Virus record (IMG/VR): IMGVR_UViG_3300042288_001626
Direction: 5' to 3' (one strand)
DNA from: a virus
Taxonomy: Duplodnaviria > Caudoviricetes
Length of the DNA stretch: 64,000 nucleotides
The position numbers and the translations under genes were made by a program. The notes under the pieces are model-generated. The model had not been told where the DNA came from, searched no databases, and worked only from the letters and a program-made list of their open reading frames with translations. Shown here piece by piece: positions 4,274 to 6,988 of this stretch (the first letter of the stretch is position 1; each line of letters opens with the position of its first letter).

Positions 4274-6988
4274 CTAATCTTTCCAATCCCAGCGTTCTTG
4301 TTCAAAGTTCCATTGGGTTTCTTTCTCAAATATCTTCGGACCTTTCCAGCGATCTGATATAACTATCTCGCAACCCACACTGTCTCCTGTGGCTAATCGT
4401 GTATGATCGCAAAAAACGTACTTCATCATCTCTTGAATATAATTGTCTTTTAATAGATCTTTGTGCACCGCCAAGTAAATGGCGTCATGTACCGTATTCA
4501 CAGGCAGCACATAGTTCATCCATAGATTTTCCTTTTTAAGGATAGCTTTGAGATTAACAGACGCATGCCACATAAAGTTAGCTAGCTCACTCGCTACAGG
4601 AAAAGCTAGAGCCTCGTTCTTCCAGCCAGCTAAGATACCAAAGTTGTCAGTTTCTTCATATGTCAAAACTTGTCCTCTGGCGTTGGTAATTCTCTTGAAT
4701 GATTCTACCTCGTTTGTGCACTGGTCTCTGTATAGCATATATCTTTCATACCTCTTCCAGGTAGTTAGCGCATACTCGATAGTTCCTAGAGAAACACTCA
4801 ATCCGTTCTCAGCATAGATGTCCGCTTGAATAGGTATAGCGGCTCCCATAAGTCCTGACGTATAGGAAACTCTGAACGTGATGCTCTTCGCAATAACATA
4901 TTTACTAACATCTTTTTTTGTTAGTGTCGCATCGTTGAAATACTCACGCATTTTCGTTTGGTGAAAATTACCTGCACGAATGTCGTGAATAAAGTCAGGG
5001 TCTTTAGACAGAAAGGCCATGATTGCCAGGTCTGCACCAGCAACGTCCAACTCCAGCCAGTGGTAGTTTTCCATACCTGTACAGAAAATATTCCTGATAT
5101 TTTTTGGAATAAGATGAGAAACCTTTTTCTGTTCGTCAGAATCAAACTTACTATATCCCGGAACAAAGATGTCTGGAATATAGGCCAAAACTTTTGAAGC
5201 AGGATTCTGTACATTAGGACTACTGCTTGCCCTAAAGTTTTTCAAGCACTCGAAGAAACTTGCATGAATTCTACCATCATTACAGATGGCTGCCCAGTAG
5301 CTCTGCTTTAACGGCTCATCTGTATCTTCGTCAAAGTCAGAATCGGCGTCAGCAGCAATGCCTTTCTTGCTCAAGAATTTTGTAGCAAATACCCCGACAC
5401 GGCTTACATTCAACAGAAGTGTGATTGCTTTATGTGCGGCCTCCAAAGTCTCAGGGTCTCGTTTATCTTCCGGAAGGAGCATATCGTTATTAAAGATAGC
5501 TTCTTCAAGTTGAAATTTAATAGTCGATAAACTTTTGCCGTTTGTTGAGGGCTCATACATCTTTTGAGTTTGAGGCTTTTGCTTATCGTACCAAGCCTTA
5601 CTCTTAGGACTCTTGCCTGATTTAGTGTAATAGGCAGGCTCAACCATCAAAGTCTTGTAGAGCAGATCTTTTTTCTGAGGAGCACTGTTTGGATTGAAAT
5701 CTTCTACTCCAAATCTTTCACTGAGGAAAGCTACAAGCTCTTGTTTTAACTCTTCATACTTTTCAGTATATTTCACCGTAATCTCTTCAAGAACCTGCTT
5801 ATCCACACCAATGCCAGTCATCTCCATATCTGTGAGATAGTGAGTTAGTGGTAAATAGATGTCGTAATAATAGCTGCGTAACTCTTTAGGGAACGCTTCC
5901 ATCATATTCAAGCAAGCCTCTCTGTGACTTACCGCATCACCAGCACAGTAGTGATAGTATATATCAGGCTCAAGAAACTTCATCTTAGCCATCTCACTCT
6001 TGGCTAGTTTATGTTCCTTCATCTTTCTATTCAAGGCAGTATAGTACGGCTCATAGTTGGTGAAGGCTTTGATGCCTGTCTCCAACCCTTTGGGCAGTCT
6101 GCTGTCGAAGAAAGCAACAGCCTTCATACCGTCGAAGGCTAGTGTTTCATCAGGAGGATGAATGCCTCTGTGTCTGAGTCGCAGATCGTCAACGCGGATA
6201 TTCCAGCCCATACGCCTTGCTTGAGGATGCTCAAGCATCAGCTTCATAGTATTCAGAAGCTCACGATTCTCAGTTACCCCGTCTTTGCTGATATTTAATA
6301 CTATCGCTATATCTTTTTCGCAAGAGTACTGAAAATCATACATAACCTCGTCGTCGGTGTATTTGTTGCCAAACCACTCGGCGTCATAACCTATATCAAA
6401 CATACCTTGGTTGATATATTTCTGCAGCATTTTTGTGTTCTCTGCAGGGTCGTCTATGACTAGGTACTGGTATCTGTCGTAATTGACATCGTTCGCCATA
6501 ACTTTCTTAGCGAACACAAAAACATCTCTGAACTCTGGGCGCTTGGTAGGATCCATAGCAACAATCATCCCAGGTGCGTAGTTAGCGACAACCTTCCCGT
6601 ACGGAGTATCTACAGTTTCTCCAAGATAGTCGCCCATCTTGATATTGGTGCGCATGATTCTTTTGAACGCTTCTGCACCCATAGGCATGATGAGCTTAGG
6701 CTTTATTTCTTCGATTTCAGCATCAAGCTCAGCTCGCCAATATTCTATATCTTCCGCAGTAGGTTTTGGTTTGCTGCCTATACCGTACTTTACTGTAGCG
6801 GTCATATACACTTTATCTAGGGGAATTCCCGCTAGTTCCAAGGCAGACAACACCTCGTCAGCACTCATACCTGCTTTACCGAAAGATTTAGCCTCCAAAT
6901 CGTCTTTGTTTGGATGACTAAATACAATCATCAATTCAGGCTTGCTGTCGTCTAGTCTGAACGGAGCTACTCTAATTTTTTCTGACAT
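4274..6988 (-). CDS. polA: Family A DNA polymerase with an N-terminal UDG-like domain and a 3'-5' exonuclease
   Basis: UDG-family-4-like N-terminus (VYMTATVKY...EIEEIKPKLIMPMG); exonuclease GYDAE; motif A LELDVAGADL, motif B AKSITFRVSY, motif C TVHDA. Confidence 0.93.
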   Translation of the reverse strand: MSEKIRVAPFRLDDSKPELMIVFSHPNKDDLEAKSFGKAGMSADEVLSALELAGIPLDKVYMTATVKYGIGSKPKPTAEDIEYWRAELDAEIEEIKPKLIMPMGAEAFKRIMRTNIKMGDYLGETVDTPYGKVVANYAPGMIVAMDPTKRPEFRDVFVFAKKVMANDVNYDRYQYLVIDDPAENTKMLQKYINQGMFDIGYDAEWFGNKYTDDEVMYDFQYSCEKDIAIVLNISKDGVTENRELLNTMKLMLEHPQARRMGWNIRVDDLRLRHRGIHPPDETLAFDGMKAVAFFDSRLPKGLETGIKAFTNYEPYYTALNRKMKEHKLAKSEMAKMKFLEPDIYYHYCAGDAVSHREACLNMMEAFPKELRSYYYDIYLPLTHYLTDMEMTGIGVDKQVLEEITVKYTEKYEELKQELVAFLSERFGVEDFNPNSAPQKKDLLYKTLMVEPAYYTKSGKSPKSKAWYDKQKPQTQKMYEPSTNGKSLSTIKFQLEEAIFNNDMLLPEDKRDPETLEAAHKAITLLLNVSRVGVFATKFLSKKGIAADADSDFDEDTDEPLKQSYWAAICNDGRIHASFFECLKNFRASSSPNVQNPASKVLAYIPDIFVPGYSKFDSDEQKKVSHLIPKNIRNIFCTGMENYHWLELDVAGADLAIMAFLSKDPDFIHDIRAGNFHQTKMREYFNDATLTKKDVSKYVIAKSITFRVSYTSGLMGAAIPIQADIYAENGLSVSLGTIEYALTTWKRYERYMLYRDQCTNEVESFKRITNARGQVLTYEETDNFGILAGWKNEALAFPVASELANFMWHASVNLKAILKKENLWMNYVLPVNTVHDAIYLAVHKDLLKDNYIQEMMKYVFCDHTRLATGDSVGCEIVISDRWKGPKIFEKETQWNFEQERWDWKD

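Follow-up and report, generated by a model that had tools for sequence, protein, structure and literature searches.

UDG-PolA fusion polymerases and the polymerase of the window

In several groups of phages, a uracil-DNA glycosylase (UDG) or UDG-like domain, a 3′-5′ exonuclease and a family A DNA polymerase (PolA) are joined in a single chain. The N4-like UDG-PolA (cluster #17; N4 gp39) is the replicative polymerase of phages for which DNA modification is not known; its UDG domain has lost the catalytic residues, and a processivity or structural role has been suggested for it (Czernecki et al., 2023, PMC10201439). The SPO1-like and SP15-like UDG-PolAs, which include the enzymes of YerA41 and phiLo, are likewise phage replicases, and they occur in phages with 5-hydroxymethyluracil (hmU) or hypermodified thymine; the catalytic UDG residues are conserved in the SPO1-like enzymes, UDG activity is retained by the SP15-like enzymes from phages with modified thymine, and in primer-extension assays 5hm-dUTP was efficiently incorporated by the polymerases of YerA41 and phiLo (Missoury et al., 2026, PMC13697223). 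A classification of PolA enzymes into 19 clusters reports strict conservation, in every cluster, of the crucial positions in motifs A, B, 6, C and TGR (Czernecki et al., 2023, PMC10201439). The subject of the present analysis is a polymerase gene at positions 4274-6988 (minus strand) of a 64,000-nucleotide stretch of viral DNA (Duplodnaviria; Caudoviricetes; IMG/VR record IMGVR_UViG_3300042288_001626), the whole of which is referred to as the window. Its product, P0001, has the same three domains but departs from canonical PolA enzymes in its active site, as an earlier note on this DNA had pointed out.

Residue numbers such as R754 are those of E. coli Pol I (Klenow), and “the clade” denotes the polymerases that share the remodelled active site of P0001. 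The clade departs from the 19 described clusters at motif B position 1, in all of motif 6 and in the TG of TGR. The UDG-like/exonuclease/PolA architecture is thus already known, whereas the remodelled motif B and motif 6 are new, and a literature search found no published description of the clade, which its sequences mark as a new, large, monophyletic subfamily of phage UDG-PolA fusion polymerases. We consider it probable, although far from certain, that P0001 is the sole, proofreading replicase of an uncultured freshwater (lake) phage of ~200 kb, and that it would use ordinary deoxynucleoside triphosphates (dNTPs) by means of a rewired dNTP pocket.

Architecture and active site of P0001

Translation of the minus-strand open reading frame (ORF) at exactly 4274-6988 yields a protein of 904 aa, and the ORF list, Pfam, PHROGs, the AlphaFold2 (AF2) model and Foldseek together identify the whole gene as a UDG-like/3′-5′ exonuclease/family A polymerase fusion. 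Pfam matches are found to UDG (PF03167) at residues 16-155 (40.6 bits, cut-off 24.3) and to DNA_pol_A (PF00476) at residues 570-855 (46.1 bits, cut-off 34.3), and the best assignment in PHROGs is phrog_17, DNA polymerase (E 1.2e-43). In six-frame searches of relatives' genomes with PF00476, the clade PolA falls below the cut-off, which shows how strongly divergent the clade is. The AF2 model, built from a 78-sequence alignment, has a mean pLDDT of 91.2 and a pTM of 0.88; its exonuclease and polymerase parts superpose on Klenow and the Bst large fragment in Foldseek, with 8oo6 as the top match (E 3.7e-24; TM 0.80 normalised on the target).

The family-4 UDG-like domain occupies residues ~16-165 (6494-6943, minus strand), as judged from PF03167 and from alignment to the T. 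thermophilus UDG 1ui0, and its junction to exonuclease and polymerase domains makes P0001 a UDG-PolA fusion. The 3′-5′ exonuclease domain (residues ~195-365; 5894-6406, minus strand) aligns with Klenow Exo I-III, and all three motifs are intact: D202 and E204 in Exo I (GYDAEW), N263 and D267/D268 in Exo II (WNIRVDD), and Y347 and D351 in Exo III (YCAGDA). In the 78-sequence alignment, D202, E204, Y347 and D351 do not vary, and the conservation of N263 and D267 is 90% or higher. The polymerase domain (residues ~375-904; 4277-5866, minus strand) was delimited by PF00476, by a profile match to Klenow residues 364-570 of the PDB chain and by Foldseek. P0001 has the PF00476 score, the Klenow-type fold, the equivalents of D705 and D882 and the arginine at R668 that are expected of family A, but it lacks the full motif B (R754-x3-K758-x3-F762-x3-Y766-G) and motif 6 (R841, N845, Q849).

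The register on Pol I was established in three ways, namely by pairwise phmmer alignment against the PDB, by comparison of a 15-sequence family profile with the PDB Klenow chains, and by a MAFFT alignment with E. coli PolA, T7 gp5, N4 gp39, an SPO1-like polymerase and a Clostridium phage polymerase. The three methods place P0001 on Klenow in one identical register, and the strings DVAGADLA, SKYVIAKSITFRVSYT, AFPVASELA and VHDAI, on which the earlier note had based its manual alignment, are all present in P0001. Each alignment reproduces the replacements listed there (E710D, R754Y, G763R, Q849A and E883A) and the residues said to be kept (D705, K758, F762, Y766, H881 and D882), so that the comparison with PolA families, which the note had proposed as a check, leaves the non-canonical residues in place. 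The original observation on the active site was correct, since three alignment methods agree on one register, and slightly understated: R841 is also replaced by Asn, N845 by Ala, G767 by Thr and Q708 by Gly, and TGR has become NFR with its Arg kept.

All motifs lie on the minus strand and were located from these alignments. The equivalent of the TGR motif (LKNFRASSS, 5219-5245) retains R668 as R586. Motif A (ELDVAGADLAI, 5021-5053) carries D648 as the counterpart of D705 and D653 at the steric-gate position E710, within D648-VAGA-D653. The helix N segment (NFHQTKMREYF, 4937-4969), which the AF2 model folds as a helix from 675 to 683, keeps H734 as H676 and adds the clade-specific basic residues K679 and R681. 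In motif B, on the O-helix (VSKYVIAKSITFRVSYTSG, 4853-4909), Y697 stands at R754, K701 corresponds to K758, F705 to F762 and Y709 to Y766, and R706 and T710 occupy the positions of G763 and G767, giving K696-Y697-VIA-K701-SIT-F705-R706-VS-Y709-T710; the AF2 model has a helix at 694-707 that holds Y697, K701 and F705 at i, i+4 and i+8 in an O-helix-like manner, and Y709 (i+12) lies two residues past the predicted end of this helix. The motif 6 equivalent (NEALAFPVASELA, 4580-4618) reads N791-EAL-A795-FPV-A799-S-E801, with N791 at R841, A795 at N845, A799 at Q849 and E801 at T851. Motif C (NTVHDAIY, 4475-4498) contains H834 and D835 as H881 and D882, followed by A836 at E883.

A remodelled active site shared by a large clade

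Searches of a collection of 5.8 billion proteins returned ~190 relatives of P0001 with E <1e-5, most of them 52-81% identical and encoded on contigs of up to 236 kb; in metagenomes, the clade comprises at least 190 clusters at 90% identity, and the phage genomes are ~200 kb in size. When 1.84 billion cluster representatives were searched by HMMER with no filters, a sharp gap appeared, above which a few clade representatives extend down to 36% identity (E <=1e-163) and below which only other UDG-PolA fusions are found, at 23-29% identity and with E values of 1e-33 and weaker. For a residue tally, 122 clade members (34-81% identity) and the 125 nearest non-clade polymerases were aligned to one hidden Markov model (HMM) of the polymerase domain.

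Every one of the 122 clade members keeps R668, D705, H734, K758, F762, Y766, H881 and D882. The substituted positions are almost as uniform: Tyr at 754 in 121 of 122 (Ile in the other one), Arg at 763 in 121, Thr at 767 in 119, Asn at 841 in all 122, Ala at 845 and at 849 in 120 each, and Asp at 710 in 120 (Glu in the other two). Among the non-clade sequences, counted only where they align, position 754 is Arg in 110 and Tyr in 5, position 841 is Arg in 107, 845 is Asn in 108, 849 is Gln in 106 and 710 is Glu in 121, so R841, N845 and Q849 are each kept in at least 106 of ~108 aligned non-clade relatives. Because the substituted residues are near-invariant in 122 homologues, the remodelled site is a selected, clade-defining state and not the product of decay, chance or sequencing error.

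Two of the replacements carry less weight. Ala at position 883, found in all 122 clade members (HDA), is also common outside the clade, where the 107 aligned sequences have Ala in 76, Ser in 18 and Glu in 6 (Ala or Ser in 94 of 107), and the MAFFT alignment shows HDA in N4 gp39 and HDS in the SPO1-like and Clostridium phage enzymes; HDA or HDS is thus usual at motif C of UDG-PolA fusions, and E883A carries no signal. E710D is clade-specific yet conservative, the carboxylate being kept; a Klenow enzyme with this conservative change reportedly retains activity, whereas one with E710A does not.

In a FastTree tree of 59 sequences, which provides local support only and contains several long branches, the clade forms one group with a Shimodaira-Hasegawa-like support of 100, nested with uncultured UDG-PolA fusions. 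Its stem is the longest internal branch of the tree (1.57 changes/site), and the branches inside it are short. The long stem, the short inner branches and the monophyly fit one episode of remodelling followed by purifying selection. Five polymerases outside the clade (P0143, P0173, P0200, P0225 and P0259) combine Tyr at R754 with a canonical motif 6; Tyr is thus a tolerated replacement, and the change from Arg to Tyr at motif B position 1 arose more than once.

Proposed rewiring of the dNTP pocket

These patterns are consistent with a burst of change on the clade stem, in which the dNTP pocket would have been rewired and not disabled. The triphosphate-binding charge has probably moved from the O-helix, where Tyr replaces R754, to the neighbouring helix N, on which the new basic residues K679 and R681 would carry it. 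At the corresponding Klenow positions, 737 and 739, Lys or Arg is found in 99% and 98% of clade members, respectively, versus 2% and 13% of the non-clade enzymes that keep R754, and both residues lie on helix N one turn past the equivalent of the phosphate-binding H734. Position 736 is Lys or Arg in four of the five non-clade Tyr754 enzymes versus 15% of the Arg754 enzymes. In motif 6, the polar triad R841, N845 and Q849 would have given way to small residues, and a new Arg763/Glu851 pair (R706-E801) probably forms a link between the O-helix and the helix of motif 6. The two residues occur together in 119 of the 122 clade members; P0128, the member that diverges most, has neither of them, with Asn and Ser in their places. 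It is from the basic residues at 737 and 739 and the co-occurrence of Arg763 with Glu851 that we infer the relocation of charge and the Arg-Glu link.

The UDG-like domain and relationships to known polymerases

The UDG-like domain of P0001 is predicted from its sequence to be catalytically dead. In comparison with the T. thermophilus family-4 UDG (1ui0), motif A (GE[AG]PG) has become FSHPN in P0001, and clade members have APG or SPG in place of motif B (HP[AS]). There is no cysteine in residues 1-175 and hence no Fe-S site, as the earlier note had recognized, and both catalytic motifs are lost besides. The relationship to family 4 is nevertheless discernible, in that profiles of the P0001 family match family-4 UDG structures with E ~1e-8; the NCBIfam family-4 UDG model TIGR00758 scores 39 bits on P0001, below its cut-off of 125. 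The domain is probably a structural or DNA-binding module, as has been proposed for the N4-like enzymes. The note had also taken the UDG-like N-domain as a hint of hmU-containing DNA. That suggestion does not hold, because the domain appears to be dead here as it is in the N4-like enzymes, and a UDG-PolA fusion by itself is therefore no pointer to hmU.

P0001 and N4 gp39 share three domains, the loss of the UDG catalytic residues and an HDA motif C. Their sequences are nonetheless remote from each other: BLAST aligns only a 121-residue fragment (E 0.11), and N4 falls outside the group of P0001 in the tree, although the N4 branch is long and cannot be placed with certainty. Moreover, N4 gp39, a purified and characterized replicase, retains both R754 and E710, and in its motif 6 an N-x3-Q pattern can be recognized by eye, two residues off register in the MAFFT block. 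The nearest relatives in a library of 1.8 billion proteins are uncultured UDG-PolA fusions (P0134, P0140 and P0143), which have the same domain order, HDA and mostly degenerate UDG motifs, and which group with the clade in the tree (support 100). Fusions of this type are, however, only 21-25% identical to P0001 and have a canonical motif A (QAEL), motif B (R..AK..FG..YG), TGR and motif 6 (R...N...Q); the group of P0143, P0173 and P0200 shares with the clade the Tyr at R754.

The SPO1-like and SP15-like enzymes resemble P0001 in their domain composition but differ from it in having active UDG motifs. As described by Missoury et al. (2026, PMC13697223), the SP15-like enzymes are further set apart by their length of ~1300 aa, compared with 904 aa for P0001, and by three large insertions, their features including Insert 1, Insert 2 and a C-terminal domain. 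In the MAFFT alignment, the SPO1-like LysYB1 enzyme shows the canonical forms of motifs A, B and 6, whereas motifs B and 6 are remodelled in P0001. Klenow and the Bst large fragment share with P0001 the exonuclease and polymerase fold, the catalytic Asp residues, K758, F762, Y766, H881 and R668, yet they are only 14-18% identical to it, and Pol I has no UDG domain; R754, R841, N845, Q849, E883, G763 and G767 of Pol I are all replaced in P0001. Finally, the model of DpoZ, the aminoadenine-incorporating PolA (NF038380), scores 23.8 bits on P0001 against a cut-off of 500, and PF00709 is absent from all five relatives' genomes described below.

Neighbouring genes and the genomes of relatives

On the minus strand of the window, the polymerase gene is preceded by genes for an SF2 (ResIII/DEAD) DNA helicase (10194-11654; phrog_16, E 2.8e-43; PF04851), a DNA primase (9029-9955; phrog_47, E 1.2e-29) and, directly upstream, a DnaB-like replicative helicase (6991-8418; phrog_19, E 5e-42; PF03796). 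The order SF2 helicase, primase, DnaB and PolA, which also supports the first two assignments by synteny, recurs in 35 IMG/VR loci with PolAs of 50-77% identity to P0001; the DnaB-like gene, whose stop codon lies 2 nt before the PolA start, keeps its position in 35 of 35 related loci. Between primase and DnaB lies an ORF of 205 aa (8415-9032, minus strand) with no Pfam or PHROG match, which holds its position in most close relatives (22-54% identity) and whose product may be a replisome accessory.

Downstream of PolA, a gene for a GP88-family protein (3547-4272, minus strand; PF17338, E 4.9e-28) begins with an ATG 1 nt after the PolA stop codon (TAGTATG), and GP88 follows PolA in 32 of the 35 related loci. 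The protein has invariant cysteines (C37, C47, C51, C200, C216, C219 and C222), and its AF2 model (pLDDT 90.6) is closest by VIA-align to the radical-SAM enzymes QueE, SuiB, PFL-AE and viperin (Z 7-7.9), a weak lead, as VIA-align itself rates the likeness as possibly just a common arrangement. No match to GP88 was obtained by sequence in the PDB or below E 0.01 in Foldseek, the ESM Atlas gave only GP88 clusters, no literature on the protein was found, and the idea that GP88 is a modification enzyme was set aside. L5-like mycobacteriophages and Streptomyces phages encode homologues with 30-35% identity, and modified DNA is not known from either group.

Gene content was read from the genomes of five relatives (182-204 kb), one of which has direct terminal repeats while the other four are at least 93% complete. 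All five encode this PolA and no other, and in none of these near-complete genomes was PolB (DNA_pol_B, PF00136) or the alpha subunit of Pol III (DNA_pol3_alpha, PF07733) found. Equally, none of the five yielded a thymidylate synthase of the ThyA family, the hydroxymethylase type (Thymidylat_synt, PF00303), a PurZ-type protein (Adenylsucc_synt, PF00709), TGT/DpdA (PF01702) or Radical_SAM (PF04055). A dCMP deaminase is encoded by all five, the thymidylate synthase ThyX by two (G001 and G005) and a dUTPase by one (G005). The PolA of G005 is 54% identical to P0001 and has the same motifs alongside ThyX and dUTPase, which argues for ordinary thymine DNA in G005.

Among the GenBank phages, megablast with positions 1-20000 of the window gave no match, and tblastn with P0001 retrieved only Clostridium phage polymerases at ~24% identity. 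The nearest cultured phages by terminase (29-30% identity) are Salmonella phage Arash and Vibrio phages D69, D148 and D181. Arash was rejected as a model for the clade enzyme, as nothing in it matches the clade profile, and so was D69, whose PolA is of another kind, split and with a canonical R754. The D69 gene (L045; OZ195729.1, 115747-118490) is annotated as separate ORFs, namely 0209 (430 aa), which covers the UDG-like and exonuclease parts, 0208 (181 aa) and 0207 (318 aa), which stops directly behind motif B; the C-terminal palm part was not found. One clade polymerase, P0273 (NCBI RTL07782.1), is encoded on a 226.5-kb contig deposited as a metagenome-assembled genome of a Candidatus Dependentiae bacterium, which is most likely a phage genome mis-binned as a bacterium. 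Elsewhere in the window are a gene for a UvdE-type UV-damage endonuclease (14528-15451, minus strand; PF03851, E 9e-39) that adjoins one for an SbcC-like ATPase (11885-13927, minus strand), a weak SbcD-like match (22006-23094) and a tmRNA gene with a long tag peptide (35686-36105, minus strand).

Possible functions of the remodelled polymerase and their implications

That P0001 works as a replicase is suggested by the invariance of the residues of the chemistry, the retention of the exonuclease motifs, the location in a replisome operon and the lack of another polymerase in the five relatives. Several considerations tell against a rewired but ordinary enzyme. Changes at Q849 and E710 in Klenow disable substrate binding or catalysis, and N845, R754 and Q849 influence fidelity (reviewed in PMC10520511); on the strength of this mutagenesis, the joint loss of R754, R841, N845 and Q849 could alter fidelity or specificity. 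That K679, R681 and the R706-E801 pair compensate for the losses is suggested by covariation between sequence positions only, and the Tyr754 enzymes outside the clade number just five and are partly interrelated. The gene-content arguments rest on relatives with 54-76% PolA identity and not on the genome to which the window belongs, and no cultured phage with the clade enzyme was found among the GenBank phages. The loss of several residues that are important in Klenow (PMC10520511) could even mean that the polymerase site is crippled, the protein serving as a scaffold or an exonuclease only while host polymerases replicate the phage. This is highly improbable, given that both catalytic Asp residues, K758, F762, Y766, H881, H734 and R668 are invariant in all 122 members, that the whole polymerase domain is strongly conserved and its fold confidently modelled, that the gene lies inside a phage-encoded helicase-primase operon, and that the invariance of the substituted residues themselves speaks of selection rather than decay. 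A less drastic alternative is that the enzyme still copies ordinary DNA but checks the geometry less strictly, or handles the template or strand displacement differently, accuracy then being provided by the exonuclease and perhaps by replisome partners. In Pol I, N845 and R668 recognize matched pairs, Q849 and R668 give specificity at the primer terminus through hydrogen bonds, and R841 contributes to template contact and strand displacement (PMC10520511); the absence of R841, N845 and Q849 from 120-122 of the 122 clade sequences, against their retention in nearly all non-clade relatives, would suit such a relaxation, as would the strong conservation of the exonuclease motifs. On the other hand, an enzyme that alone has to replicate a 200-kb genome is strongly constrained to be accurate, the reading of the minor groove may have passed to other residues, and the primer-side sensor R668 is invariant, so we regard relaxed checking as rather unlikely.

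The earlier note had proposed altered substrate selection, possibly for modified bases, in which case the pocket would fit a non-canonical substrate (dUTP, hmdUTP, dZTP, another modified dNTP or rNTPs) because a base is replaced in the phage DNA. Its first part may hold, since the positions that contact the substrate are changed clade-wide. As for modified bases, a dCMP deaminase is present in all five relatives and ThyX in only two, the weakly radical-SAM-like GP88 is translationally coupled to PolA, and some UDG-PolA phages do contain modified thymine (Missoury et al., 2026, PMC13697223). The gene content of the five relatives nevertheless points the other way: with no ThyA-family, PurZ, TGT/DpdA or Pfam radical-SAM gene in any of them, and with ThyX in two and dUTPase in one of these two beside the same PolA motifs, the inference of modified bases is unsupported. 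GP88 homologues are also found in the L5-like mycobacteriophages and Streptomyces phages, the UDG appears dead, unlike that of the SPO1-like and SP15-like enzymes of thymine-modified phages, and the DpoZ model stays below its cut-off. The reading is mechanistically weak as well, in that the contacts of the replaced residues are with the triphosphate, the sugar and the minor groove, whereas it is the major groove that holds most of the base modifications known from phages, and the sugar-discrimination features remain, F762, Y766 and an acidic residue at 710 being kept. A modified substrate is accordingly improbable to our minds. Uracil-containing DNA was rejected as a general explanation, as G005 has ThyX and dUTPase and G001 has ThyX with the same polymerase motifs, and ribonucleotide incorporation is unlikely in view of the same three sugar-discriminating positions. 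A replicase that uses ordinary dNTPs with a rewired pocket is the reading that we retain.

Family A polymerases are among the best-understood enzymes, and the clade keeps their chemistry residues while exchanging the triphosphate-binding Arg and the template-side minor-groove triad. By themselves, a UDG-PolA fusion and an HDA motif C are no sign of modified DNA. It is tempting to speculate, albeit only tentatively, that the clade represents a natural replicative family A lineage that binds the dNTP and checks the nascent pair with other residues and hence has a measurably different substrate or fidelity profile; if so, its enzymes might, for example, tolerate minor-groove-altered or unnatural nucleotides and offer a possible new scaffold for polymerase engineering. 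If P0001 is a normal, accurate replicase, several contacts held to be “essential” would be replaceable, and the clade would show one way in which this can be done; if it is not, it would be a candidate for unusual substrate tolerance.

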